Shown here: positions 17,174-44,296 of the stretch, in pieces
Numbering within the stretch: the first letter of the stretch is position 1
How the letters are laid out: each line of letters starts with the position of its first letter
Assembly (NCBI GenBank): GCA_041484665.1
Contig: JBGPIA010000003.1
Location: forward strand, 224,001-288,000
DNA from: Candidatus Krumholzibacteriia bacterium
GTDB lineage: Bacteria; Krumholzibacteriota; Krumholzibacteriia; JAJRXK01
Reading direction: 5' to 3'
Length of the DNA: 64,000 nucleotides
The notes under the pieces: generated by a model
What the model was told of the DNA's origin: nothing
Database searches by the model: none
What the model saw: only the letters and a program-made list of their open reading frames with translations
Position numbers and translations under genes: made by a program

Positions 17174-18781
17174 TCAGTGCGCCGACTCGTCCTTGCGACC
17201 CTGTCCAGGGTCGACCGTCACGTAGCTCGTCAAGTCACCGCGGCGGATCATGAGCGTCACGGGATCGTGTGCGTCCCGCAAGCGATCCACCGCCGCGAGA
17301 TACTCGTCGATCCCAGCGATCTCCATGTCGCCGATCTCCACGATCACATCGCCCGGCCGCAGCCGCGCGGCGTCGGCGGGGCTGCCGGGCCCCACGTCGG
17401 TGACGAGCGCGCCGGTGCTCTGCTTGATGTCGAACCGCTCCTTGAGCTCCTGCACGCGGGGGCTGTGGGGGTCGTTCAGGCCGTGTACGGCCATCCCCAG
17501 CCAGCGCTCCGCGGCCGGCACGGGCAGATTCGCCGCTGCCGCCGCGAGCTGCTCCTCTGGATACTCGATCAGCGTGACGTCGATCTGGCGCTCCTTGGCC
17601 TCGCGCAGGATCTTCAGCGCGGCCTTCGATCCCACATCGGCATCGGCCACGCGGAATTGGAGGTCGCGGCTGCTGCCCACGGGGATCCCGTTGAACTGCA
17701 GGATGAGGTCCCCCTCCTTGAGCCCGGCGGTCGCAGCCGGCGTGTCGGGCGCCACCTCCTGGACCAGGACGCCGTGCGCGCGGTCGATCTTGTAGGTGCG
17801 GGCCAGCTCGGGCGTGAGGTTGGTCATGACCACGCCCAGGTAGCCGCGCACGACGTGGCCGTGCTGCACCAGGTCGCGGTAGACGCGGCTGGCAAGGTTG
17901 ATGGGGATGGCGAAGCCGATCCCCTGGGCTGAGGCGTTGATAGCCGTGTTGACTCCCACGACCTCGCCGCGGATGTTGAGCAACGGACCCCCGCTGTTGC
18001 CGGGATTGATCGCGGCATCGGTCTGCAGGAAGTCCTGGTAGCGCGGGGCCGCGCCCTGGATGGGCAGGTCGAAGCGGCCCTTGGCGCTCAGCACGCCGAC
18101 GGTAAGGCTCCCCTCCAGGCGGCCCAGCGGATTGCCGATAGCGATGGCCCAGTCGCCGACCTCCATCTTCTCGCTGTCGCCGAACTTCAGGAACGGAAGC
18201 CCCTTGCCCGACTCGATCTTGACGACCGCGACATCGGTGCTGGGGTCCTGGCCCACCACGCGAGCCTTGAAGTACTCCTCGTTGCCCGGGAGCTTGACCT
18301 CGATCTCGTCCACGTCGGCCACGACGTGGTTATTGGTCAGGACGTATCCGTCGGCGCTCACCAGGAAGCCGCTACCCGCCCCGGGCAGGTCGAACTCGCG
18401 CTCCATGAACTCCCGGTCACGCGGGAAGAACTGCCGGAACATCTCCTCCAGCGGATTCTCCTGGAGCATCTCGCCGTGCGTGGCGGTTTTGCGCGTGCGG
18501 ATCGCCACCACCGCGGGCATCACGGCGTCGGCGACCTTCGCGAATGGGCTGTGGAGTTCGGCATCGGCCAGCGCGGCGTAACGGCCTGCCGACGATTGCG
18601 CGGCGGCTCGGCCGGCGCCCACAGCCAACAGCGCGCACGCGACCGCGATCAGGGCCACGCCCCGGGAAACGCCGCAACCGCACCCAGCGAGGATTCTCGC
18701 GCGGAAGCGACACAGCGGGGCGCCTACCGCAGGTGCACCGCGACGCAATGAAGAGACACATGCACGACGCCCGTGGTCCAT
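17174..18781 (-). CDS. degP: HtrA/DegP (Do) serine protease with two PDZ domains
   Basis: 'GSGFLV', 'TNNHV', 'QTDAAINPGNSGGPL'; RBS ggagggag before ATG 18781. Confidence 0.93.
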   Translation of the reverse strand: MDHGRRACVSSLRRGAPAVGAPLCRFRARILAGCGCGVSRGVALIAVACALLAVGAGRAAAQSSAGRYAALADAELHSPFAKVADAVMPAVVAIRTRKTATHGEMLQENPLEEMFRQFFPRDREFMEREFDLPGAGSGFLVSADGYVLTNNHVVADVDEIEVKLPGNEEYFKARVVGQDPSTDVAVVKIESGKGLPFLKFGDSEKMEVGDWAIAIGNPLGRLEGSLTVGVLSAKGRFDLPIQGAAPRYQDFLQTDAAINPGNSGGPLLNIRGEVVGVNTAINASAQGIGFAIPINLASRVYRDLVQHGHVVRGYLGVVMTNLTPELARTYKIDRAHGVLVQEVAPDTPAATAGLKEGDLILQFNGIPVGSSRDLQFRVADADVGSKAALKILREAKERQIDVTLIEYPEEQLAAAAANLPVPAAERWLGMAVHGLNDPHSPRVQELKERFDIKQSTGALVTDVGPGSPADAARLRPGDVIVEIGDMEIAGIDEYLAAVDRLRDAHDPVTLMIRRGDLTSYVTVDPGQGRKDESAH

Positions 18782-18892
18782 GCTCTCCCTCCGCTCGCAC
18801 CGGTGGCGCAAACGGTTGGCGGCGTCGTGTCGCGATCGTCCCGCGCGGCGGGAAGGGGTGGGACCCTTCGGCGAGAAGCACCGCGCGTTATT

Positions 18893-18921
18893 AGTGTAAC
18901 CCGATGTGGTGGAAGCGTCAA
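18893..18921 (-). promoter_or_regulatory. Sigma70 promoter of degP
   Basis: TTGACG-N17-TACACT. Confidence 0.7.
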
Positions 18922-21352: not shown

Positions 21353-24300
21353 TCAACGCGCTACCGCAAACGTCGCCACCGCCGCGTCGCCGTTGACGCG
21401 CAGGCGGCAGACGTAGTACCCGCTCGCCAGCCCCGCCACCGAGATCGGCTCGTCGTAGAGCGCCGGTGCGACGATCTCGACCCTCGGCAGGGCGCGCACC
21501 TGCTGGCCCTCGAGGTTGTACACAGCTCCCTCCACGCGCCCAGGGCGCAGGATCTCCGCGCGCACGCGGACCGTGGGTCCCGTTACCGGATTCGGATAGA
21601 CCGCCAGCGTCTTGCCCTGGATCGACGCCCCGCCGCTGGGCGCGGCCGCGTCGGTGCTCAGGCGCTGCACGCCGCTGTTCCAGGCATCCCCTCGGCCTTG
21701 CGGCCAAGGCGCGAAGGTGTCGGCGGGTACGTCGAGAGCGTAGACGCGCAGCTCCCCCTCGCGCCGCGTGACGACCGCGGTCTGCGCCGGAATCGTCTGG
21801 ATGAGCGCGTCGAATGCGCCGGCTGCCACCAGCTCCAGCGATCCGTCGCCGTCGAGGTCGGCGACGGCCGGCGCGCCGGCGGGCTCCGCGGGACCGGCGA
21901 ACGGCCAGCCGGGCAGGGCCTGTACTTGCCGCTGATCGACGGCGTGGAGGCGTCCCACCGGGTCCTGCCAGAGGAGCTCGGCCTGGCCGTCTGAGTCGAG
22001 ATCGACCATCAGGGGAGCCACCAGCGCCGGTGCGCCGGCCGGGTGCCCTCCGGCGTAGGCCGGCCGATAGGGGCCGCCCGTGCGCACGCGCAGCGCGCGG
22101 TCCAGGGGCAGCAGCGCGCTGCCGGTAGCGTAGGCGATCACCGGCTCGCCCGCAGCCCGCAGCGGACCAGCGGCGAGCCCCGACCAGGGCGACGGCTGCG
22201 GATCCCCGGCGACCGGCGCCGGTGAGGCCGCGGCGCCGCTGACGGCCGGCGGGGCCGCACGGATCGCCGTGAGCGCGGCGCCAAGCAGGAGTCCCATCCG
22301 TTGTGCGCGCCCCAGCGAATCGACCCACGCGACGTCGACGTCGTCAGAGGAGGGAGCGAAGCGGGAGGCCAGCATTGGCACTGCGGCGATGCGGCCCGTT
22401 ACCGGCACCGTGCCCAGCAAGCCCAGCCCGAGCTCGGCGGTCACGATCTGATCCTGCGCGGCGCCCCGCAGCCCGAACGCGAACGTCACGGCCGCGCCCT
22501 GCGGGCCGCGCGGCACGACGAGCAGCTCAGAGGCCGGCGTGCCGGACAGGAGCGGCGTGACTGCCTGCACCGCAGGGCCCGGTGGGCCCCCGCTGCATGC
22601 GTCCAGACCGGACAGGAAGAACGTGACGAGCTGCGTCTCGCCGGCCGCGGAGACGCTGAGCTGGACGATCTCGATCGGCGAGCGCGGCCCGGCCGAGGCG
22701 AACGCGCCGCACAAGGGACGCAGCACCGGCGCCCCCACGAAGGTGCTCGCACCGGCGGGAATGAGCACCCCCCACGTGGCGGGATTCGCATCGCCGTCCT
22801 GGAACTCTGCGCCGGTGCTGCCGACGAACGCGTAGACGCCGTCCGCGCTGGCCAACACCACTTCGAGCACGCCGTCGCCGTCCAGGTCTCCCACGGCCGG
22901 AGGCCCTAGCCATTGCGGCGGCCCGTTGGGCCCGCGCGCCAGCGCCAGCACGCCGGTGGTCGACGGATCGTGGTCGCCATCGACCCAGTCGCCCAGATCC
23001 GCGGTGAATACATACACGGCGCCGCTGTCGCCGGCTGCGATGATCTGCATGCCGGGCGCATCGTTGGGCAGCAGGTCGGCCACCCGCAGGTCGAAGCGGG
23101 GCGCGCGGCGGGGCAGCCGCCGCCGGGACCGCTCGTGCACGCGCGGTGGGGCCGCTCCAGCGCGGCTGAGCCCAAGGGTCATGGTACCGTCGTAGACGAT
23201 GGCCTGCAGCTGGCCCGAGCTGAGGACGGAGTCGAGGGCGACGCGACTGATCTGGGAGAATGCGATGCCGGTCGGCGCGCCGTCGGCGGTGTCCGTGGCG
23301 GGCAGCGTGTCGGGGCCGAAGCGGCTGGCGCCCTCGCCGCGGAACGCGTCACCGTCCCAGCCGAGGAAATAGACCGACGGCTTGGCAGAATCGAGATCCT
23401 GGATGCCGTCGGCCTCCTCTAGGTCGACCCCCTTGTGGGCGGGGTCGGCGTTGATCCGGTTGCTGCCCGTGCGAACGGCGTCCTCGATCACGCGCTCGTC
23501 GACGTGCCAGACGTAGAGCCCGCTGCCCCGTCCGCGCCGGTATCGTGGGCCGTCGAGCCACTCGCTCATGGCGAAGTCCCACTCGGCGCCCTCGGTGTTC
23601 TCCCAGGTGTCCACGCCGGGCGTGAACGGCGACGTGGGAAAGCCGTTGGTGCTGTCGCTACCCGCATCGTAGTAATCAGGGAAACCGTCGTGGTTGAGAT
23701 CGCCGGGAAAGGTGAAGCGCAGATTTCCGTCCGGGTCCTGCAGCCGGTACTCGGCCAGCCAGTATTCCCGACTGTTGATGGGCACCTTGAGAAGCAGCGT
23801 GTCGGCGATGGTCGTGGCCGTGGCCCCCAGCCTCAATTGCAGGGTCTCGCCCAGGGCGGGCACCGCCTCCACGGGTTCGGCCCAGCCCATCAGCGCGCGG
23901 TTCATGGCCGAAGGCTCGGCCGGGATCAGCCCGATCCCCGCGAACAGGCCGTAGCTCATCAGGTCGAATTGGCCGGCGCCCTGGCTATCGGGCGATCCAG
24001 CCGGCGTGAAGTCGGCCAGGTTGAGCATCCCCAGCCGTAAACCGAACTCGAAGCAGTAGACGCCGAGGGTGCCGAAGAAGCCGTCGGAGAGCCCGGGCAC
24101 GGGATCCTGACTCTCGCTCTCGGGCAGCACGAGCACGTGCTCTACGTCGACGCCGTCACCGGTCGGCAGGCGCGCGTCGGGCAGCGCTCCCGCCTGGAAG
24201 GCGGCCTTATAATCGCGGGCGTCGAGATAGTTGCTGAAGATCTGCGCCGGGCTGTCCTGGAGGATGTCGGTCTCCTGCCCCGCTCCGGCGTGGATCAGCA

Positions 24301-25003
24301 CCAGCGTGTCGTAGCGGCTGAAGTCGACCTGCGGGTCGATGGCGGCGATCGCGTCGCGCGCCATCTCCACCACGTGCACGCTGGAGGTGTCGTCGTCGCC
24401 GTAGTAGCCCATGGGCCTCGGCAGATTCACGAGCGAGCCCAGCACGTTCCAGCGCATGTGGAATCGGCCGCGGCTCACCGTCGCGAGGTAGTCGCGCACT
24501 CGCTGCATCTGCACGTCGAAATAGGCCGAGTCATGCGCGGTGAACTCGTAGACGGCCCGGCCCTGGAAGGCGAAGAGCGGCCCCAGGTAGTGGCCGTGTC
24601 GCGTCTGGGGTGGCCAGCCCGGGAACTCCGCCAGGTTGCGCCCCCACAGCAGGCTGTCGCTGAAGTCGCAGCCCACGACCAGCAGGCGCAGCGAGTCGGG
24701 GCCCGCGCGGCGCTGCAAGGCCGTACGCTGCGAGAGTGTCAGCTGCCTGGGGAGCAGCCGGCGACCGCACTGCAGCAGCAGCCGGGCGCGCTGCGGGAGG
24801 AGCTCCCCGTGCGGGCGCGGCGGCGCTGACGCTGCACCGCCGGCGCGCGGGAGCACGGCGACCGCAGCCGCGACTGCCACGGCCACGGCAGCGGCTGCCA
24901 CCACGGCGAGCGAGCGCCCGGCGGCGATGGCGCTCGCATCGCGCTTGCGTCGCGGTGGCGTGCGCGGTGGCGTGTGCGGCTCTGGAATGCGCGGTTCGGG
25001 CAC
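21353..25003 (-). CDS. Large secreted protein: immune-inhibitor-A (M6)-like domain with degenerate Zn motif, FG-GAP repeats, C-terminal T9SS-like sorting domain
   Basis: 'LIHAGAGQE', 'FDLMSYG', 'EYWLAEYR', 'GLYVWHVDE', 'VDLEEADG'; repeated 'GDLDGDG'; C-terminal 'VYPNP...VYNLEG...LASGYY'. Start uncertain; GTG 25003 chosen because it follows a promoter. Confidence 0.82.
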   Translation of the reverse strand: MPEPRIPEPHTPPRTPPRRKRDASAIAAGRSLAVVAAAAVAVAVAAAVAVLPRAGGAASAPPRPHGELLPQRARLLLQCGRRLLPRQLTLSQRTALQRRAGPDSLRLLVVGCDFSDSLLWGRNLAEFPGWPPQTRHGHYLGPLFAFQGRAVYEFTAHDSAYFDVQMQRVRDYLATVSRGRFHMRWNVLGSLVNLPRPMGYYGDDDTSSVHVVEMARDAIAAIDPQVDFSRYDTLVLIHAGAGQETDILQDSPAQIFSNYLDARDYKAAFQAGALPDARLPTGDGVDVEHVLVLPESESQDPVPGLSDGFFGTLGVYCFEFGLRLGMLNLADFTPAGSPDSQGAGQFDLMSYGLFAGIGLIPAEPSAMNRALMGWAEPVEAVPALGETLQLRLGATATTIADTLLLKVPINSREYWLAEYRLQDPDGNLRFTFPGDLNHDGFPDYYDAGSDSTNGFPTSPFTPGVDTWENTEGAEWDFAMSEWLDGPRYRRGRGSGLYVWHVDERVIEDAVRTGSNRINADPAHKGVDLEEADGIQDLDSAKPSVYFLGWDGDAFRGEGASRFGPDTLPATDTADGAPTGIAFSQISRVALDSVLSSGQLQAIVYDGTMTLGLSRAGAAPPRVHERSRRRLPRRAPRFDLRVADLLPNDAPGMQIIAAGDSGAVYVFTADLGDWVDGDHDPSTTGVLALARGPNGPPQWLGPPAVGDLDGDGVLEVVLASADGVYAFVGSTGAEFQDGDANPATWGVLIPAGASTFVGAPVLRPLCGAFASAGPRSPIEIVQLSVSAAGETQLVTFFLSGLDACSGGPPGPAVQAVTPLLSGTPASELLVVPRGPQGAAVTFAFGLRGAAQDQIVTAELGLGLLGTVPVTGRIAAVPMLASRFAPSSDDVDVAWVDSLGRAQRMGLLLGAALTAIRAAPPAVSGAAASPAPVAGDPQPSPWSGLAAGPLRAAGEPVIAYATGSALLPLDRALRVRTGGPYRPAYAGGHPAGAPALVAPLMVDLDSDGQAELLWQDPVGRLHAVDQRQVQALPGWPFAGPAEPAGAPAVADLDGDGSLELVAAGAFDALIQTIPAQTAVVTRREGELRVYALDVPADTFAPWPQGRGDAWNSGVQRLSTDAAAPSGGASIQGKTLAVYPNPVTGPTVRVRAEILRPGRVEGAVYNLEGQQVRALPRVEIVAPALYDEPISVAGLASGYYVCRLRVNGDAAVATFAVAR

Positions 25004-25012
25004 GAGGCGGGC

Positions 25013-25042
25013 AGTATAGGGAGAGGACACAGAGGGGGTCAA
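25013..25042 (-). promoter_or_regulatory. Sigma70 promoter (near-leaderless) of the M6-like gene
   Basis: TTGACC-N18-TATACT, ending about 10 nt before GTG 25003. Confidence 0.62.
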
Positions 25043-25413
25043 CCGCGCGGCCCGCGGGCGCTGCGAACGCTGCACACGCGGCCGGCGTGCCCGGCGTGGC
25101 GCGCGCGGCGTGCGCTGCCGGCGGACGGCACTGGCCACCCAGCCCAAGACGCGAGCGCGGCGCTCCGGATTGCGGACGCGCCGCGCGCGCAAGAATCGGG
25201 AAGAGGAACGTCGGGCCCTCCATCGTCGCCCCTGATCGACATTTCCGGCCCTTCGTTCCTCTTCCACCATCGAGGGTCCCCCGCGGCCCGCCCCTCTCCC
25301 CTCCTCCCGCGCTCGGCTGCCAACCATCGCAGGACGGGGACCGGGGTGCGAAGCCCCTGCCCCTTCCACAGGGAAGGGGTCGGAGGGCCCTGTTCAAACC
25401 GTTCGGGTCTCTT

Positions 25414-27234
25414 CTACGAGCGACCTCCGCGCGGTGCTCCACGCTCAGCGGAGCTGCGTCCTGCGCCGCCATCGCGGCCGCCGCGATCCGCGGCTCCGTG
25501 GCGGGAGTCTCCACCGCCGCGGGGCGACGGAGCCTGGCGCGGCGCTGGCGCCGACCGCGGCGGAGGAGCCTGGGGAGCCGGCGCGCTCGACCGGGGCGGC
25601 GGAGCCACCTCCGGCGGGGGCGCCTGGCGCGGCGGCGGCGCGACTTGCTCACTGCGGCTGGGTCGCGGCGCCGGCGGGCCGGGCTCTGTACTCGCACCTC
25701 GCCCGCTGTCGTCCTGATCGCCTCGCGAGCGTGCGCCGGGCGCGGTCCCGTCGCGCGGCGGCGAAACGACCTTCCGCGGTGGACCGCCGCGGTCAGGCCC
25801 GCGCTCGCTGTTACGGATGACCGGGCGCGTCCAGCGGCGCGCGCCGGTGTCACGGCTCTCGCCCGAGCGCGGTTGCGGCGCGACCCGCGTCTCGCCGCCC
25901 GAGCGGTCCGTGCCGTCGTCTCCGTGGGCCGGCGACGGCAGGCTGCGAACGCTGCGCTCGCGGCGCACCACGGCGTCGGTGCGGACGCCGCCCCCGGTCT
26001 CGCGCGGCACCAGCGCCGTCGAGCGGTGCGGCGCCGGCAGCGGCGCTGTACGCTCCCGGTCCGGCAGTCGGCCGAGGCCGCGATCGGCGGGCGCGGTCAT
26101 GCGACCGCCGCCCCCGGCGCTTGCAACGCGCGCGCGCGCGATGCTGGGAGGCTCGCCGCCGCGGATGGCCTGCCTGCCGAAGCGCCGCTCGCTCGCCGGT
26201 CCGTCGACCGCGTACAGCGGCGCCGTCACCGCGGCGCCGTGCCGGTAGCGGACGAGGTAGTCACCGCGGTAGTACGGGCTATCGTTCCACGACCAGAGCG
26301 GGTAGGAGCGCACGTAGACGCCGCTCCCCGGCCAGCGGTAGCACACCGGGTAGTACCAGAAGTAGTACGGCCGGCACCCCACCAGATCCCAGTAGTAGAA
26401 CGGAGGATCGTAGAAGAGCGGGTAGTAGCCGTACCGTCCCCACCAGCCCGAGTACCAGCCCCAGTCGTAGTGAACCGACACCTGCGTGCAGGTGTCCACG
26501 TACGGGTGGACGGTGCGCCCGTCGTCACCGTGGCACTGGGAGCAAGCGTAGCGCGGGTAGTCGACCCGGCTGTCGACATACACGTGACTCCAGTCGGTAA
26601 CGATATAGTCGACGTCCTGCTCGAGGCCGGTGATGGCATAGTTCACGTCGTTCACGGCCAGGAACGGGTCCCCCGCGACTTTGTGTCGGTAGTGCTCCTG
26701 CTCATCGGGATCGAACGCGAAGTCGATCGCGAGGTTGCGCAGGTCGAATGGATAGCGGCTGGCGAGCGCCTCGACGTACTCGACACCCTTGCTGAGGCTG
26801 GCGTGCAGGCGATGCGTGGCGCCCGCGGGCGGCAGCGTGTAGGCGTGTCCGCCGTACACGAAGCCGTCGTTGTAGCGGGTGGCCGGCCAGAGCACCTCGG
26901 CCACGCCGTCTGCGTCAATGCGGTAGACGACGACGTAGGCGTCGGCATTGGTGCGGAAGTGGAAGCCAATGGCCTCCCCGCGCTGGTAGACTTCGTCCTC
27001 ACCCTTGTCGTGCCAGACCTGGATGCGCAGATCCCGGTCCGCGCCCGCCTCTGCCGTGCTCGCCTCGGCCTTGCTGGCCGCCGCCTTTGCGGTGTCCTGG
27101 TCGGCCGCGCGATCCTCCCCCTGCACCCAGAGGGCAGCCAGGTCCACGCGCGCAGTGTCCGCCCACGCGAGGGCCGGGACAAACGGGAGGACGGCGAGGA
27201 GGACGCCGATCGAAACGTGTAGCTTCGCGCTCAT
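25414..27234 (-). CDS. Secreted DUF4384-like protein with CxxCH motif, Trp/Tyr-rich segment and Pro/Arg-rich disordered tail
   Basis: Signal peptide; 'IQVWHDK...YQRGEAI.F.FRTNADAYVVVYRIDADG...LWP'; ACSQCHG; YDWGWYSGWW...; low-complexity C-terminus. Confidence 0.75.
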   Translation of the reverse strand: MSAKLHVSIGVLLAVLPFVPALAWADTARVDLAALWVQGEDRAADQDTAKAAASKAEASTAEAGADRDLRIQVWHDKGEDEVYQRGEAIGFHFRTNADAYVVVYRIDADGVAEVLWPATRYNDGFVYGGHAYTLPPAGATHRLHASLSKGVEYVEALASRYPFDLRNLAIDFAFDPDEQEHYRHKVAGDPFLAVNDVNYAITGLEQDVDYIVTDWSHVYVDSRVDYPRYACSQCHGDDGRTVHPYVDTCTQVSVHYDWGWYSGWWGRYGYYPLFYDPPFYYWDLVGCRPYYFWYYPVCYRWPGSGVYVRSYPLWSWNDSPYYRGDYLVRYRHGAAVTAPLYAVDGPASERRFGRQAIRGGEPPSIARARVASAGGGGRMTAPADRGLGRLPDRERTAPLPAPHRSTALVPRETGGGVRTDAVVRRERSVRSLPSPAHGDDGTDRSGGETRVAPQPRSGESRDTGARRWTRPVIRNSERGPDRGGPPRKVVSPPRDGTAPGARSRGDQDDSGRGASTEPGPPAPRPSRSEQVAPPPRQAPPPEVAPPPRSSAPAPQAPPPRSAPAPRQAPSPRGGGDSRHGAADRGGRDGGAGRSSAERGAPRGGRS

Positions 27235-28196
27235 CGCGACCCCTCCTCGGGTGTCGGCACGACCTTGCCTCCGCTTGGGACGGACAGCTCGATCAGGCCA
27301 GGCACCGGTTGATACGCCCAGTAGACGCCGACGTAGTCGGGAGTCCGCTCCACGACGGTGATCTTGGCGTAGTTGTGGTCTCCGGACAGAGCCGGGGATT
27401 GGAAGATCTTGATCGCGTACGTGTGGTCCACGACCGCTTCGACTTTGCCGGCGATGGACCAGCCGCTCGTGGGCGCCAGGCTCAGGTCGTCGAAGGAGGC
27501 CAGGCCGAAGTCCTGGATCTGCACGCGATCGGGATTTGCGTAAAAGTAGCCGACCCGCTGAGCGCCGACCAACTCGGAGCCGAACCACAGGTCGGTGCTC
27601 GACAGCGAGTAGAGCTGCGCCTGATCCGACAGGCTGCTGAAGTCGTAGCCTGAGAACTGCGCGTTCTGGAGGGACAGGGCCTGGTCGTAGAGCTTGAGCG
27701 CGCTCTGCACCTGCTCGGGGCGCGGCGTGTCCACGACGTAGTCCAAGCTCAGGCCGCTCTCGTTGTTGGTGTGGTCGAACGCGCTCACGGCGTAGTAGTA
27801 GTCCACCCCGTTGGTCAGCCCGGTGTCCGCGTACTCGACGAAATCATCGCCGGGCGCGCTGGTCGCGCCAGGCTGCAGGTGATCGATGGCCGTGATCTCG
27901 GCGATCATCGTGAATTTGCTGCTGCCGTCGGTGTTGCTGAAGATCCGGTAGCCAGCGAGGTCCGGCTCGCGGTCGGGGATCCAGCGCAAGTAGATCGCAT
28001 GGTCGCCTGTAATGCTGTGCACGCCGCCAGGTATGGCCGGTGGCGTCGCGTCCACGAAACCCTTCTCGTGATCGTTGCAGCCACCCAGGGTCGCGATCGC
28101 CAGCGCCCCGAGCGCGGCGGCGAGCGTCCGTGACCCGGCTGAGACTTTGAGCGTGGCTCTTCGCGAGCCAAAGACACTGCTGCTGTGCCTACGCAT
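27231..28196 (-). CDS. Lipoprotein with fibronectin type III domain
   Basis: Lipobox LGGC; 'PPAIP', 'LRW...EPDLAGYRIF', 'YADTGLTNGVDYYYAVSAFD...NES'; RBS gggaggagg. Confidence 0.85.
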   Translation of the reverse strand: MRRHSSSVFGSRRATLKVSAGSRTLAAALGALAIATLGGCNDHEKGFVDATPPAIPGGVHSITGDHAIYLRWIPDREPDLAGYRIFSNTDGSSKFTMIAEITAIDHLQPGATSAPGDDFVEYADTGLTNGVDYYYAVSAFDHTNNESGLSLDYVVDTPRPEQVQSALKLYDQALSLQNAQFSGYDFSSLSDQAQLYSLSSTDLWFGSELVGAQRVGYFYANPDRVQIQDFGLASFDDLSLAPTSGWSIAGKVEAVVDHTYAIKIFQSPALSGDHNYAKITVVERTPDYVGVYWAYQPVPGLIELSVPSGGKVVPTPEEGSR

Positions 28197-28256
28197 CGTG
28201 GACCTCCTCCCTGCAGGTCTCGTGACCTTCGGCCGACCACCCTGCTGGTGCACAAG

Positions 28257-28271
28257 GCACCGCCCGTGCCA
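28257..28271 (-). promoter_or_regulatory. Sigma54 (-24/-12) promoter of the Fn3-lipoprotein/DUF4384 operon
   Basis: TGGCACGGGCGGTGC (GG-N10-GC), 60 nt upstream of the ATG; IHF-like TTTCAACGAGTTG at 28333-28345. Confidence 0.65.
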
Positions 28272-28550
28272 GGCTGCGCCGCGCGGGAGACGGGGCGGGG
28301 CACCCTGGGTGCCAGACCCCCCACGCGATCCCCAACTCGTTGAAAAGAAGCGAATTGCCAGCACGCGGGGACTGGTGCTGGTGGCGGCGGCGCTGCGGCC
28401 GGGGCCCGGCTGTACGCGCCCCGCAGCCCCGTACGTGCCCCGCGGGGGACAGCCCCCTGTCCTCTGGCTGGGACAGCCGGGAGCGCGAGCCTGCGCAACC
28501 ATGGCCGGGGCGGCGGGGCGCTTCGGTGGTAGCGGTGCGCGGCCGGCCGC

Positions 28551-28584
28551 AGAAGCAAAGGGCCGCCCCGGAGGAGGCGGCCCT
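28551..28584 (-). terminator. Intrinsic terminator closing the putative ncRNA
   Basis: Minus-strand stem agggccgcctc-ctcc-ggggcggccct (11 bp, one G.U pair) followed by TTGCTTCT. Confidence 0.72.
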
Positions 28585-28935
28585 CGCACAAATGAGAGAG
28601 GGTGCGCAGTACCGGGAACCGCCCCAGTCGTGCCGCTCCTGGATCTCGCCATTCCAAGAGGGCGAAAGCGGCTCCTATGTTGGTGTCAGCGCACCCTTCT
28701 CGCCTGATGCGGAGGATTTCGAAGGATGGTCAGGAACGGATGCCTTCCTTCACTCCACCGCGCTCAACCCTGTGACCCCACCTCACAAGACAAGCGTGGT
28801 AGACCCAACTTGGAAGGGTCTCCTCATACAGCCGGTTAACCGAGAGGAGCCGCTCCCTTCCATCCTTCGAAACTCTCGAGCCCTCACGGGCTGCTTTGGA
28901 CGACCGGACCACGACTGCCAGTAGTGCCCGGCGCT
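28552..28935 (-). ncRNA. Putative novel ~380-nt structured sigma54-dependent non-coding RNA
   Basis: Lies between a -24/-12 promoter and a terminator; no credible ORF; multiple helices (28717-28729/28860-28872; 28599-28607/28689-28697; 28625-28632/28910-28917; 28820-28825/28844-28849; 28632-28637/28667-28672). Confidence 0.62.
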
Positions 28936-28945
28936 GGATCTCCAG

Positions 28946-28961
28946 TGCAGCCAACGTGCCA
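28946..28961 (-). promoter_or_regulatory. Sigma54 (-24/-12) promoter
   Basis: TGGCACGTTGGCTGCA versus consensus TGGCACG-N4-TTGCW (one mismatch); predicted +1 near 28935. Confidence 0.8.
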
Positions 28962-29164: not shown

Positions 29165-32100
29165 CTATGCCGGCGCGTGTAGACCGTAAAGCTTGATCTT
29201 CTGGAGCAGCGTGGGATAGCTGATGCACAGCCTTCGCGAGACCTCAGCGCGGTTCCAGCCGGTGATGGCGAGGGCCTCCGCCAGGACTCTACGTTCCAGT
29301 TCGGCCACCTGAGCGCGCAGCGGCAAGGGCCCGCCGGCTTCGCTGGACGCGCCGTCCTCCGCCTCGCTGCCGAGCGCGTCCTCGCGCAGCCGCGGCGGGA
29401 GGTGCACCATGCGCAGCTGCAGCTCGCCCGCGGCCAGGATCACCGTGCGCCTGATCGCCTTCTCCAGCTCACGCACATTGCCGGGCCACGCGTACGCGCG
29501 CAGGCACTCGGCGAAGCTGCGCGTCATCGTCGGCAGCGGGCGGCCGAGCTCGGCGCAGGTCTGCGCGATGAAGTGCTCGGCCAAGAGCAGCACGTCCTCC
29601 GGACGCTCGCGCAGTGGCGGCACGTGCACTGGGAAATCGAGCATGCGGTAGTACAGGTCCTCCAGGAATTCGTCGCGCTCGACCATCGCGCGGAGGTCCT
29701 GCTTGCTCGCGCACAGGATCCGCACGTCGACGGCCCGCTCGACCGTGCCACCGACCGGCCGCACCAGCTTGGTGTCGAGGAAGTGGAGGAGCTTGGCCTG
29801 CATCGGCAGGCTCATCTTTCCCACCTCGTCGAGGAACAGCGTACCGCGCTCGGTGCCCACGATCAGGCCCGGTTTGTCCCTGTCCGCTCCAGTGAACGCA
29901 CCGCGCACGTAGCCGAAGAGCTCGCTTTCCAGCAGCGTGTCCGGGATCGCTGCGCAGTTGACCGTGAGGAACGTGCGGTCGCGGCGCGCGCTGAGCTCGT
30001 GTACGGCGCGGGCGAACAGGCCCTTGCCGGTGCCCGTCTCGCCGGTGAACAGCACGGTGTACGGCGAGTCGGCCACCTTTGCGCAGAGCTCGAGAACTTC
30101 GAGGATCTTGTCGCTGTGGGTGAGGATGTCCTTGAAGGCCTCTTCGGAGCGGGGAGACGGCGCCGACGCCGCGGGAGCGTCCAGGGCCGTAGCGGTGTCC
30201 AGCAGCGCGGGCCGCAGCAGATTCACGTAGGTCGAGGCCACGGCCAGCGCCTCGGAGCTCAGCGGCTGCGGCTCCCCGGTGCGCTCAAAGTAGACGATCC
30301 CGCGCAGGCCTTCCCCGGCGCGCAGCGGGAAGGCCACGGCCACCGAGACCTCGCCGATGTCCACGCCCAGAGCCTCACGCCACGCGGGCTCTGCCTGCGG
30401 GCGCGTCCAGACGCGCGGCCCGTCACACGCCGCGCAGCTGGGGAGCTGGGACAGCACGTGGGCCGCGGTGCGCCGCGCGCGGGCGCGGGCCATGCGCGAC
30501 GCAGCCACCAGCTGCACGCGTCCTCCGGGTCCGCGCAGTGCCACCAGGCCGCGCTCGCCGCCCATACGCTCCATGACCGCCGAGAGCATGGCCGAGGCGC
30601 TCTGGGCCAGCCCTTCGCCTCCCTGCAGCAGCGGATCGCCCAGGTTGGCCAGCTCCTGGTAACGGGTAGTGGCGACGCGTGCATGGGAGGACATGGCCGC
30701 CTCGATGCGAGCGCGCAGCTCCTCGATGTCACCGGTGACGCCCTCGACGCCCAGGCAGCTCATGCGCTCCACCTCGAACAACGCGAGCAGCGCCTCGTCG
30801 TGGTTTCCCAGCTCGAGCTCCACGCGAGCCAGCGCGAGCTGCAACCGGCACGGCGCAGTGTCGGCGTCGGCGGCCGCCAGATCGACCGCTTCGCGCAACA
30901 ACCCGCGCGCCGCGAGCAGCTGCGTCCGCCCGCCGTGCTGCACGTGGAGATCCGCCAGCAACTCCAGCGTCACGCCGATCTCGACCGGCAGCCGGTAGGC
31001 GCGGAAGCGGTTGAGGGCCTCTTGCAGAGCGGAGCCCGCCTCCTCCACGCGCCCGCAGGCCAGCAGCGCCTGGCCGCGCACACGCTCGAGAAACCCCAGC
31101 TCGTACTGCTCGCCGCAACCGCGGCCCACCGCGGTTCCTGCGGCGGCCAACTGGGTGGCGGCCAGGGCATCGCCGCGCTGCAGGGCCAGTTGCGCCTGGC
31201 GCCGCAACACCTCGGCCAGCACGTCGTTTCCGCCGGAGATCTCGCGCGCGCGGGTCTCGGCGATGCCATAGTTGAGCTCCGCCTCGTCGAAGCGGCCCCG
31301 GGCCGCCATCAGATCGCCGAGGAACTCATCGGCCAGGGCGGTCTCGCGCAGCGAGCCATTACGCTCGGCGAGAACGCGCGCTTCGAGCAGATTGCGCTCC
31401 GCGTCGGCGAACTTGCCTTCCTCGATCTGGAGCTGCGCGTGGAGCAGGCGCAGCTTGGTGATCAGCCCCTGGTCGCCCAGGCTGCGCGCCATCTCACTGC
31501 CGCGCAGCACGCAAGCCAGCGCGTCGGCGCGCCGGCCCATCTTGCGGTAGAGCACCGCCTTGTTGAGGTGCAACGCGCCCAGCTCGTGCGCGGAGCCTAC
31601 CGCGCGCATCAGCTCCTCGGCCCGGTCGAAGAGCTGGATCGCGCGCGACCAGCGGCAGGCGTTCTTGGCCAGCAGCGCGAGGTTGCTCAACACCTGGGCC
31701 TGGCCGGTCACGTGCTCGATGCGCCGGTAGGTGGCCAGCGCGTCCTGGTAGAACTCCTCCGCCTTCTCGGCCCGGCCCAGGCGGAACCAGCAGCCCCCGA
31801 GAATGGTCTGGGCGTTGCCCACCTCGACGTGCGCATCGGTCGTCGCGAGTGTGGCGAACGCGTCGCGCGCAAGCTCGGCGGCTTCCTCGTAACGCGCCAT
31901 GCGGTAGAGCAGCAGGGCGCGACGCACCTGGACGGGGGCCTGCAGCTGTGGCGTGGAGCCGGCCAGCAGGTCCGCCGCAGCGTCGAGCTGCGCCGCGCAT
32001 TCCTCGAGGCGGCCCTGCTGCAGCAGGCAGTCAGCGAGCTTGCGGTGGAGCACGGCAAGGGGCTCCACGCTGATGCCAGCCGGTCCGGATTCCGGCACGA

Positions 32101-32269
32101 GGCCGCGCAGCGCAGCGCGGTAGTACTCGATCGCAGAGGAGTAAGCGGCAGCGCGATAGTGGAGGTCCCCGACCTCTTCCAGTCGGGGCGCACCGGAACC
32201 CTCGGGCTTACGCCTCGGCGTCTCCGGAGAGGACCACGGCCTCTCGTCTCCGTCACGGAACTCGTCCAT
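29165..32269 (-). CDS. Sigma54 enhancer-binding protein with N-terminal TPR array, GAF-like domain, AAA+ domain and Fis-type HTH
   Basis: About 550 aa of TPR-like helical repeats; GAF-like 'AFPLRAGEGLRGIVYFE'; 'GETGTGKG', 'ESELFGYVRGAFTGA', 'LFLDEVG', 'WPGNVRELE'; 'WNRAEVSRRLCISYPTL'. No receiver domain. Start taken at ATG 32269. Confidence 0.93.
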   Translation of the reverse strand: MDEFRDGDERPWSSPETPRRKPEGSGAPRLEEVGDLHYRAAAYSSAIEYYRAALRGLVPESGPAGISVEPLAVLHRKLADCLLQQGRLEECAAQLDAAADLLAGSTPQLQAPVQVRRALLLYRMARYEEAAELARDAFATLATTDAHVEVGNAQTILGGCWFRLGRAEKAEEFYQDALATYRRIEHVTGQAQVLSNLALLAKNACRWSRAIQLFDRAEELMRAVGSAHELGALHLNKAVLYRKMGRRADALACVLRGSEMARSLGDQGLITKLRLLHAQLQIEEGKFADAERNLLEARVLAERNGSLRETALADEFLGDLMAARGRFDEAELNYGIAETRAREISGGNDVLAEVLRRQAQLALQRGDALAATQLAAAGTAVGRGCGEQYELGFLERVRGQALLACGRVEEAGSALQEALNRFRAYRLPVEIGVTLELLADLHVQHGGRTQLLAARGLLREAVDLAAADADTAPCRLQLALARVELELGNHDEALLALFEVERMSCLGVEGVTGDIEELRARIEAAMSSHARVATTRYQELANLGDPLLQGGEGLAQSASAMLSAVMERMGGERGLVALRGPGGRVQLVAASRMARARARRTAAHVLSQLPSCAACDGPRVWTRPQAEPAWREALGVDIGEVSVAVAFPLRAGEGLRGIVYFERTGEPQPLSSEALAVASTYVNLLRPALLDTATALDAPAASAPSPRSEEAFKDILTHSDKILEVLELCAKVADSPYTVLFTGETGTGKGLFARAVHELSARRDRTFLTVNCAAIPDTLLESELFGYVRGAFTGADRDKPGLIVGTERGTLFLDEVGKMSLPMQAKLLHFLDTKLVRPVGGTVERAVDVRILCASKQDLRAMVERDEFLEDLYYRMLDFPVHVPPLRERPEDVLLLAEHFIAQTCAELGRPLPTMTRSFAECLRAYAWPGNVRELEKAIRRTVILAAGELQLRMVHLPPRLREDALGSEAEDGASSEAGGPLPLRAQVAELERRVLAEALAITGWNRAEVSRRLCISYPTLLQKIKLYGLHAPA

Positions 32270-32382
32270 CAGGCATCCCTTGGGCGAGAAGTTCTGACAA
32301 GGTTGCCGACATCGACCGGCTCGATCGTGCGCTGTGGCCGCGCAGCCCCCCACGACTGCGGGGAGCGCGAGGCCCCTTCCTC

Positions 32383-32727
32383 CTATCGGACGAGCAGCAA
32401 GGTGAAGCCGCGCTCGTACAGGAATCCCATCAGGCGGATGATCCGCGAGGGCGGCGGAAGCATCGCCGCGGTGGCGCGCACCGTCGGGCCCCTCACGTTG
32501 TTGCCACCCAGGATGTCATCGGGATCGCCATCCAGGCTCGAGCCGGGCCCAGGCCCGCCGGGATCCCCACCGGCCGGAGGCGTCCAGGAAGACAGGGTCG
32601 CGGTAGCGCCCGAGCCGGTACTGGGCGGGCGCACGCCCACCGACTTGGCCAGCGCAGCAGGCTGAGCCCACAGGCTCACGACGACCGCGAACGCCACGGC
32701 AAGGAGCAACGCGTGGCTGGTCTTCAT
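32383..32727 (-). CDS. Small secreted peptide/proprotein (114 aa) with GDPDD core
   Basis: RBS gaggag; Sec signal MKTSHALLLAVAFAVVVSLWAQPAALA; G/P/D-rich middle 'GGDPGGPGPGSSLDGDPDDILGG'; amphipathic basic C-terminus. Confidence 0.75.
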   Translation of the reverse strand: MKTSHALLLAVAFAVVVSLWAQPAALAKSVGVRPPSTGSGATATLSSWTPPAGGDPGGPGPGSSLDGDPDDILGGNNVRGPTVRATAAMLPPPSRIIRLMGFLYERGFTLLLVR

Positions 32728-32955: not shown

Positions 32956-34332
32956 CTAGCCCCCTTCGGAGGAGGTCCGCAACCCGTACTTCTGGATCTT
33001 CTTGTAGAGATTGCTGCGCTGCATCTGGATCTCGTCGGCCGTCCGGCTCACGTTGTAACCGAACTCGCGCAGCTTCTGCTGTAGGTAGGCGGCCTCGCTG
33101 GCCGCCTTGAATTCCTGGAAGGTCGGAGCAGCCAGGAACTCGGCCGCTCCGCGGTCGGCCTCGCGCCCTCCCAGCGCTGCTGGGAGATCGGACGCCGCGA
33201 TGGTGTCCGCAGCCACCACGATCGCCAGCCGCTCCGCCAGGTTGCGCAGCTCCCGGACGTTGCCCGGCCACGCGTAGCGGGCCAGGCGCTCGATCACGCC
33301 CGGGCCGATCTGCTTGGGCGGCTGCTTCATCTCGCGGGCAACCGCGTCGAGGAAGTGGGCGAACAGCGGCTCGATGTCGTCGACGCGCTCGCGCAGCGGC
33401 GGCAGGTGGATCTGGATCACGTTGAGGCGGAAGTAGAGGTCCTGGCGAAAGGCAAGGTTGGCGTCCTGCAGATCGCGATTGGTGGCGGCGATTACCCGCA
33501 CGTCCACGCTGACCTGGTCCTGCCCACCGACCCGCTCGAAGCGGCCGTCCTCCAGCGCCCGGAGCACCTTGGCCTGGGCCGCCACGCTCATGTCCCCGAC
33601 CTCGTCCAGGAAGAGGGTGCCACCATGGGCCCGCTCGAACTTGCCGCGGCGGCGCGCCAGCGCTCCCGTGAACGCGCCGCGCTCGTGGCCGAACAGCTCG
33701 CTCTCGATCAGCTCGTCGGGAATCGCCGCGCAGTTCACCTCCACGAAGGGCTGGTCGGCGCGCCGGCTGTGGGCGTGGATCGCCCGCGCCACCACCTCCT
33801 TGCCCGTGCCGTTCTCGCCGGTGATCAGCACCCGCGCCGGGGTGGGCGCCACCTTCTCCGCCAGCTCCCGGATGCGCCCGATGGCCGCGCTGCGGCCGAT
33901 CAGCTCGCCGCGCCGGCCGGTCTCCTCCGCCAGCTCGCGGTTGACGGTGCGCAAGCGTCCGTGCTCCACGGCGTTCTGGAGACGGACGAGCAGCTCCTCC
34001 TTCTTGAACGGCTTCTCGAGGAAGTCGTAGGCACCGCGCTTGATCGCCTCGACGGCGTTGGCCACGGCGTCGTGGCCGGAGATGACCACGGTGGGCACTT
34101 CGAGGCCCTCGGCCTTCAGGCCGGCCATGACCTCGAACCCGTCCATGCCGGGCATCTTGACGTCCAGCAGCAACGCGTCGATGCCGCCGCGCCGCAGCTG
34201 TTCGAGGGCGCTGGGCCCGTCCACCGCGTCGGCGACCTCGTAGCCCTCGTAACGCAGGATCGCGCCGACGCTCTGGCGGATCGCCGCCTCGTCGTCGGCG
34301 ATGAGCACGCGTGCCCGGGCCACGGCCGTCAC
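32956..34332 (-). CDS. NtrC/NtrX-family sigma54 response regulator (REC-AAA-HTH)
   Basis: 'LIADDE', 'LLDVKMPGMDG', 'DFLEKP', 'GENGTGKE', 'ESELFGHERGAFTGA'. Confidence 0.95.
   Translation of the reverse strand: MTAVARARVLIADDEAAIRQSVGAILRYEGYEVADAVDGPSALEQLRRGGIDALLLDVKMPGMDGFEVMAGLKAEGLEVPTVVISGHDAVANAVEAIKRGAYDFLEKPFKKEELLVRLQNAVEHGRLRTVNRELAEETGRRGELIGRSAAIGRIRELAEKVAPTPARVLITGENGTGKEVVARAIHAHSRRADQPFVEVNCAAIPDELIESELFGHERGAFTGALARRRGKFERAHGGTLFLDEVGDMSVAAQAKVLRALEDGRFERVGGQDQVSVDVRVIAATNRDLQDANLAFRQDLYFRLNVIQIHLPPLRERVDDIEPLFAHFLDAVAREMKQPPKQIGPGVIERLARYAWPGNVRELRNLAERLAIVVAADTIAASDLPAALGGREADRGAAEFLAAPTFQEFKAASEAAYLQQKLREFGYNVSRTADEIQMQRSNLYKKIQKYGLRTSSEGG

Positions 34333-42584: not shown

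Positions 42585-44296
<1,712 letters not shown>

Follow-up and report, generated by a model that had tools for sequence, protein, structure and literature searches.

A sigma-54 small RNA gene of Krumholzibacteriota with two predicted mRNA targets, its neighbouring activator and htrA

The Qrr small RNAs (sRNAs) of Vibrio are short, Hfq-dependent and multi-copy, and the NCBIfam name of LuxO marks that protein as a sigma-54 activator. Qrr1-5 are switched on by LuxO, whose translation they regulate, luxO being repressed, and distinct pairing regions serve the different targets (PMC3262071). Here we describe an uncatalogued regulatory RNA gene on the minus strand (approximately 28935-28553) of a 64,000-nucleotide stretch of DNA, the window, from Candidatus Krumholzibacteriia bacterium (GCA_041484665.1, contig JBGPIA010000003.1, positions 224,001-288,000). 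Like the Qrr genes, it has a sigma-54 promoter beside the gene of an enhancer-binding protein, and its RNA is complementary to the translation start of that activator (52/52). It is best read as a Qrr-luxO-like system, in which a multi-seed base-pairing sRNA would feed back on its activator and control htrA, the gene of an envelope quality-control protease; the relations established for Qrr are predicted ones here. Unlike the Qrr RNAs, this one is about 380 nt long and single copy, holds its seeds in loops on stems, has no Rfam match and belongs to a genome in which Hfq was not found. The activator, unlike LuxO, has tetratricopeptide (TPR) repeats and no receiver domain.

Other described systems share single features with this locus. 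RNAIII, from the agr locus of Staphylococcus aureus, presents C-rich loops to Shine-Dalgarno (SD) sequences. There is a likeness with RNAIII and VR-RNA (PMC2837412) in the long multi-hairpin effector RNA, the peptide-linked locus and the several mRNA contacts, loop-loop contacts among them. There is no sequence relation to RNAIII, however, and in place of a two-component system we find sigma-54, a two-membrane lineage and G-rich seeds for C-rich sites that lie beside or far from the SD. CrcZ lies directly behind its own activator gene and is of similar length, and GlmY acts as a decoy. The CbrB-CrcZ and GlrR-GlmY pairs thus resemble this locus in having a sigma-54 sRNA, but both RNAs are protein decoys, whereas the present one is complementary to sites in mRNAs and is recognised by the Rfam model of neither. 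Finally, RoxS (on yflS) and FasX (on ska) bind the extreme 5' ends of mRNAs and protect them, and the authors of that account (PMC5419742) consider a similar block of RppH or RNase E conceivable.

The RNA gene and its modules

The element is a real RNA gene with a predicted sigma-54 promoter of its own and a likely terminator hairpin, signals that are conserved in homologues (Table 1). The predicted folding energy of the minus strand is -205 kcal/mol (z -6.39, against -5.61 for the plus strand), and 0/100 shuffles of either strand folded as well. This bears out a preliminary description, made from the letters of the window, of a structured minus-strand RNA of about 380 nt with promoter and terminator. 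All the stems listed there are present: the perfect inverted repeat of 13 bp (28717-28729/28860-28872), the helix of 9 bp (28599-28607/28689-28697), the stems inside them and an 8-bp match, cagtcgtg/cacgactg. Transcription probably starts near 28935, 12 nt past the -12 GC of the promoter, whose elements we take to follow the -24/-12 consensus, the AT-rich tract upstream being presumably of the IHF type. A sigma-54-like match stands about 110-132 nt ahead of the core motif in 30/30 homologues from genomes (one with GA for GC) and likewise in 13/13 metagenome loci. The 3' hairpin went uncalled in a simple terminator scan, and its U tail is short in this genome.

At the gathering score, Rfam 15 returned nothing in the whole window but one tRNA, the tRNA-Met(cat) gene at 42585-42658 (plus strand). 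Over the element there was no match at E<=10, an outcome that the preliminary description had named as support for novelty, and 10 loci with homologues from other families, together with a second sigma-54 RNA described below, gave 0 matches. RNase P and tmRNA, already dismissed as identities from the lack of their hallmarks, are encoded on other contigs of the genome; the 6S model found nothing in this 94% complete genome, nor at the element. The literature searched, whose coverage was partial and lay outside supplementary motif catalogues, contains no description of the RNA or the cassette. A small protein-coding gene, named at the outset as one of the outcomes that would overturn the proposal, is ruled out: the overlapping open reading frames have no Pfam match, and the homologue alignment shows frame-breaking gaps and covarying stems. 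A cis-acting leader or riboswitch of the downstream gene was also rejected; because that lipoprotein-like gene has its own sigma-54 element, the RNA is probably a separate unit and not a mere leader, and it still accompanies the activator at loci that have a different gene downstream. The supposedly lower GC skew of the region did not hold up, the element having -0.079 and the flanking genes +0.063 and -0.025.

Three metatranscriptome runs from three studies each yielded one contig, 95-97% alike and wholly inside the RNA (28702-28924, 28732-28922 and 28724-28882). These contigs are only a weak hint at expression; they are among the 17 of 83 pieces listed, are without strand, ends or level, and make uncovered flanks uninformative.

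Table 1. Positions of the RNA gene, its modules, its predicted targets and neighbouring features in the window
Feature	Position	Strand	Basis
sRNA gene, ~383 nt, from a 5' hairpin through two long domains (II, which is branched, and III) to the terminator	28553..28935	-	fold z -6.39, homologues, covariation
sigma-54 promoter (-24 GG / -12 GC), AT-rich IHF-like tract upstream	28946..28961	-	promoter reading; kept in homologues
GC-rich 3' hairpin, likely intrinsic terminator	28553..28586	-	fold; U-tailed equivalents in homologues
5' seed of the window's own family, CGGUCGUCC, complementary to htrA leader 18841-18833	28898..28906	-	UCGUCC invariant in 9/9 aligned sequences of that family; 9-bp match
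Domain II: outer 13-bp stem, side hairpin, long arm	28717..28872	-	covariation, stem check
Loop B, AGGUGGGGU	28775..28783	-	invariant columns in 40 sequences; present in divergent families
Loop C, AUGGCGAGA, atop a covarying stem; predicted seed for activator mRNA	28644..28652	-	alignment, covariation, site tests
sigma-54 activator of 1034 aa with TPR, AAA+ and Fis-HTH parts; presumed to activate the RNA gene and predicted to be an RNA target	29165..32269	-	Pfam
Hairpin over activator ribosome-binding site; loop UCUCGCC (32289-32283), complement of loop C, directly 5' of SD	32272..32307	-	site tests; hairpin covaries in the sister family
Gene of an htrA/degP-type protease with one trypsin and two PDZ domains; second of the predicted targets	17174..18781	-	Pfam; orthologues ~10 kb from RNA in many relatives
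htrA promoter of sigma-70 type (18921-18893), followed by the 5' leader, which holds three matches to the RNA	18833..18921	-	promoter and site tests
Small exported-looking protein of 114 aa with an acidic GDPDD-like motif; gene immediately precedes that of the activator; possible peptide signal	32383..32727	-	similar reading frame in 17/21 loci; signal peptide judged by eye
TGTCC..GGACA palindrome downstream of RNA, candidate activator-binding site	28458..28475	.	similar palindromes in homologues, by eye
Lipoprotein-like gene downstream, own sigma-54 promoter 28271-28256	27231..28271	-	promoter reading

Variants of the RNA occur in all nine Krumholzibacteriota families sampled (f1 to f9, where f1 is the family of the window and f2 its sister, the two nearest families). 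BLAST found it in 8/9 genomes of f1. A covariance model of domain II matched 9/9 in f1 and 40/43 in f2 (55/61 in a second run on f2), nearly always as a single copy, and gave only 3 weak matches in 98 genomes of the seven other families; one match in f5 was discarded as a coding-region false positive. A pattern scan of metagenomes returned 120 loci, 13 of them true homologues. The search for homologues and covariation advised in the preliminary description showed that the helices covary, at 34/72 predicted pairs among nine f1 sequences and at 21/29 pairs among 40 sequences (180 cells, 0/500 shuffles), well above slid controls. The activator gene is upstream in 38/39 loci that are long enough, the remaining locus ending before it. 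From the other direction, 39 loci upstream of the lipoprotein gene include 25 with the activator, and GTGGGG follows a sigma-54-like element in all 25 and in one contig-end locus. Regions behind the activator hold promoter and loop in 17/20 cases (f6 10/11, f3 4/4), two being unreadable and one a misplaced window.

Within the RNA, the GUGGGG core of loop B is the single motif kept in every family, and two loops of domain II are separated by an almost fixed distance (53-58 nt in 29/30). The side hairpin of domain II (ACCGGC at 28836-28831) is dispensable in some genera, where the ACCGG hairpin is replaced. Across the genome, hairpin loops with GGCGAG or GTGGGG are no commoner than those with control words. 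Two further ideas were rejected. Internal pseudoknots in which the 5' segment would pair with loop B or C fail on the local pairing of that segment, the free part of which matches htrA; binding to tRNA 3' ends fails on the U ahead of GGCGAG, which is not conserved, and on the lack of any consistent match among 48 ARAGORN genes.

A CsrA/RsmA sponge or a pseudoknotted structural RNA, both raised in the preliminary description, could call on the single csrA copy of the genome, on four ANGGA words, on the 8-bp match between the 5' and 3' parts and on the constant loop spacing. The four words do exist, but 0/9 GGA triplets are fully unpaired in the predicted fold (0-3 in 43 homologues), and csrA adjoins fliW within a flgL-fliW-csrA cluster. 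The long-range match reaches no more than 3-7 bp in 42 of 43 homologues, all but that of the window, and in those shown the 5' arm folds locally, which makes the crossing pairing a peculiarity of this genome. Moreover, the families differ in which modules have been lost, exchanged or divided between transcripts, and we consider both roles extremely unlikely.

This modularity is seen in the comparison of sequences. Loop C (GGCGAG) lies within the RNA in f1-f3. In f4, f7, f9 and some f8 it is found on a separate sigma-70-like unit, whereas the loci of f5, f6 and most f8 lack it, the promoters of divergent-family units having been read by eye. The separate RNA, of about 115 nt, combines loop C with an invariant, anti-SD-like GGACAUCCCCUCCG loop (loci L215, L216, L218, L220-L224, L202, L203, L436 and L437). 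The RNA of f6 (L420-L428) has conserved loops of its own, such as CUUGAUGCUGAGAUGUG ahead of the terminator. Another reading is a sponge for C-rich small RNAs, such as the adjoining CCCCUCC-loop RNA of other families, for which RosA provides a precedent (PMC8216469). GGUGGGG can indeed pair with the CCCCUCC loop (six G-C and one U.U) of the f4/f7/f8 sigma-70 unit and of the f3 RNA, but no such partner was found in this genome, the sole exact match being antisense in a coding region, and the mRNA sites described below account for the seeds, with covariation. Such a sponge therefore seems to us very unlikely; RosA and FopS/RbpB (PMC11697453) fit less well.

The activator mRNA as a predicted target

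The activator has no named NCBIfam equivalog at cut-off among the 25 matches listed, and it is a single-copy orthologue in 143/151 genomes of the class. We compared the start regions of 101 orthologues and one paralogue. TCGCC lies 13-20 nt ahead of the start codon, abutting the 5' side of the SD, in 10/10 sequences of f1, 42/42 of f2 and 6/7 of f3, while its flanks vary; 51/52 sequences of f1 and f2 have the form CTCGCC. As background, TCGCC occupies the same place in 2.2% of 3970 genes of this genome. There is no conserved loop-C site in 61 leaders of the downstream gene, nor any such site in the start region of the paralogue (G139:C1:2052853-2053734, one genome). The duplex between loop C and the site is stronger than composition shuffles in f1 10/10, f2 42/42 and f3 6/7, as compared with 0/10, 3/42 and 0/7 for a scrambled seed, and the site is predicted to be unpaired with a probability of 0.81 in f2 and 0.59 in f1. 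Site and seed also disappear together, f5 (0/7), f6 (0/5) and f8 (0/8) lacking the site and their sigma-54 RNA lacking loop C. In f6, the loop of the activator SD hairpin is CCCCAC, the complement of loop B, in 4/5.

Some observations weigh against this pairing. The match is invariant on both sides and so offers no compensatory change, and kin are not independent. By seed energy in this genome alone the site ranks 69/3968. Where loop C is on a separate transcript, in f4, f7, f9 and part of f8, the activator site is mostly absent (5/17 in f4 and 1/4 in f7, farther upstream; 0/1 in f9 and 0/8 in f8). Pairing of loop B with the activator site is not significant against shuffles (f2 3/42, f1 0/10).

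According to the proposed mechanism, loop C would kiss the exposed loop of the hairpin over the ribosome-binding site and so feed back on the activator. That hairpin hides the SD by default, the SD being unpaired at 0.25 in f2 and 0.28 in f1. Covariation of this hairpin is seen across 38 sequences of f2 (78.5% paired, both sides changed in 37 cells, 0/500), in a register that was chosen after the alignment had been viewed, another register giving 46.5% paired. Freeing site C alone keeps the SD closed (0.28 to 0.23 in f1, 0.25 to 0.13 in f2), and with both sites forced single-stranded its accessibility in f2 reaches 0.74. The second of these sites is the word CC[AG]C, a match to loop B on the anti-SD strand beside the first, found in f2 39/42, f4 13/17, f5 6/7, f6 4/5 and f1 0/10; the control word CC[CT]C occurs in 1/42 of f2.

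The modelled accessibilities are compatible with either sign. The balance tips slightly towards repression of the activator: the site is contiguous with the SD, and an RNA bound to this site only would not expose it. Activation remains a serious alternative, given that the SD is concealed at the outset and, in f2, becomes accessible once both sites are taken up; the same pairing would then have the opposite sign, two loops of the RNA opening the SD hairpin by an anti-antisense action to give a positive-feedback switch. The covarying hairpin and the frequency of the loop-B word in f2 speak for this variant of the best explanation. The second site is the anti-SD itself, however, so that opening on its release is trivial; the loop-B pairing fails against shuffles; and f1, including this genome, is without the word. 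Over all outcomes we regard positive feedback as possible but somewhat unlikely.

The htrA leader as a predicted second target

The first 55 nt of the htrA leader contain sites for loop C (18876-18870), for loop B (18864-18857, in a hairpin loop and unpaired at 0.98) and for the 5' seed (18841-18833). A sigma-70-type promoter precedes 44/45 of the htrA leaders examined in f1 and f2. In f2 the 5' loop of the RNA is predicted to pair, over up to 19 bp, with the opening ~15 nt of the leader. The seed-leader score in 34 f2 genomes is 11.2 for cognate pairs, 7.75 for non-cognate pairs and 5.7 for a control window, a cognate value reached in 0/10000 permutations. Aligned seed-leader columns (31/34 genomes anchored) have 401/496 cells paired, compared with 332 when permuted, and there are both-side switches, one with G-C in 16 and A-U in 15 genomes and no mismatch, another with C-G in 28 and U-A in 3. 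The permutations ignore kinship, and these counts overstate independence. Compensatory change between seed and target is found for htrA in f2, not within f1. In f1, a helix of 9-16 bp can form with the segment around UCGUCC in 6/10 genomes (9 bp in the window genome, 12-16 bp in 5 of the other 9). The loop-B site (YCCCAY) is present in 29/34 htrA leaders of f2 and 7/10 of f1, with mean unpaired values of 0.83 and 0.69, and in 3/3 of f3.

Set against this are several results. The cognate test fails in f1 (9.3 versus 9.5, 7063/10000 permutations) because the seed is invariant there and 4/10 genomes match the leader poorly, with only 5-7 bp. Words used as controls for the loop-B site turn up often as well (16-22/34), the leaders being C-rich. 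A loose triple-site pattern occurs 4 times in this genome and 7 times and once for controls; by itself it is not rare, and support for the htrA pairing is comparative. There is no common htrA seed in 13 genomes of f3, f5, f6 and f8. In the genome, RNase J is not above cut-off and Hfq was not found. Weighing both targets, we think it quite probable, the signs of the effects left aside, that the RNA is a base-pairing sRNA with the activator and htrA mRNAs as targets.

In the model, the 5' seed, loop B and, in this genome, also loop C would bind within the 55 nt at the start of the htrA mRNA, at a distance from the SD. SD accessibility is unchanged on freeing the sites (0.27 to 0.28 in 10 f1 genomes; 0.31 to 0.30 in 22/34 of f2, the other 12 being without a start call). 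Control of stability is suggested because the sites lie about 100 nt from the SD and are without effect on its accessibility, and a change in mRNA stability is the most likely result of docking. Protection of the 5' end appears marginally the better guess as to its form, promoted decay being the other. The parallel with RoxS is imperfect, in that RoxS blocks RNase J1 whereas this genome encodes RNase E/G, and the polarity of the seeds is reversed with respect to RoxS and FasX, the G-rich strand being on the sRNA here.

Leaders of RRM-1 genes were rejected as class-wide targets of loop B. In this genome 4/5 carry a 9-nt complement, but these are near-identical paralogues, and within 130 nt of the start the complement is found in 0/28 RRM-1 leaders of 10 other genomes and 0/21 of nine f1 genomes; they are at most a lineage-specific target. 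The four genes (L255-L258; G000 C1, C23, C12 and C18) have in common a long, structured, SD-hiding leader with no Rfam match, and the RRM leaders of relatives have other conserved-looking hairpins. Genome-wide, using home-made gene calls, there is no enrichment of seed complements near starts.

The wider locus and the proposed circuit

The small exported protein encoded upstream of the activator has no Pfam or NCBIfam match. A second sigma-54 activator, of NtrC type (32956-34332, minus strand), lies directly upstream of its gene. In RRNPP peptide-receptor systems, the product of a neighbouring gene is taken back up as a peptide and bound by a TPR domain; here the exported protein gene is adjacent to the activator gene and its motif is conserved, and its product may be a peptide signal. 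On the other side of the RNA, two sigma-54-like elements at 28256-28314, before the lipoprotein gene, form with the palindrome at 28458-28475 a candidate enhancer common to both promoters. The downstream run on the minus strand (21353-28196) consists of the lipoprotein-like gene, which occurs in 134/151 class genomes and is without a family name, a DUF4384 protein and a large FG-GAP repeat protein.

Contig C1 encodes another sigma-54 RNA, roughly 405 nt long (z -5.0; G000:C1:318855-319285, minus strand; L242:2356-2786). It ends in three hairpins with the loop-C seed, the loops being UUGGCGAGAG. It is convergent with another sigma-54 activator gene and has a homologue with covarying stems in G002 (L245). 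Across 201 genomes, the repeated loop-C pattern was found only in this genome. Such a repeat, three to four times in one RNA, is sponge-like, and with five RRM-1 proteins and one cold-shock protein encoded it would suit a decoy of the CrcZ/GlmY kind, in which the loops would be bound by an RNA-binding protein that also recognises its mRNA targets and is titrated by the RNA. A decoy should share its motif with those mRNAs, however, and the mRNA sites here are reverse complements, one of them covarying with the RNA; we judge this explanation improbable.

We therefore return to the base-pairing sRNA. It would be a stand-alone, sigma-54-transcribed and trans-acting molecule whose long stems each present one short seed. 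It would be turned on by the TPR activator next to it, which may in turn sense the small exported protein. In a more far-reaching version, an exported peptide would signal through the TPR activator to a modular sRNA, two loops of which open the SD hairpin in bistable positive feedback while up to three seeds on the htrA leader raise the protease. This system would be phylum-wide and Hfq-free, with seeds and sites swapped between families, and the second loop-C RNA would tune the same node. Taken as a whole this version is rather doubtful; if it is true, raised HtrA protease could itself process or clear the exported peptide.

By the comparisons made here, the RNA represents an uncatalogued sRNA family with two specific, cheaply testable targets. 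From sequence one can almost never predict what the sRNAs of uncultured phyla act on, and here there are two testable candidates, one (htrA) backed by intermolecular covariation and one (the activator) by 52/52 conservation, in a lineage in which Hfq was not found. The gain, loss and splitting of seed modules show how an sRNA evolves, and a near-universal TPR sigma-54 activator with its small exported partner is predicted to be linked to envelope proteolysis.
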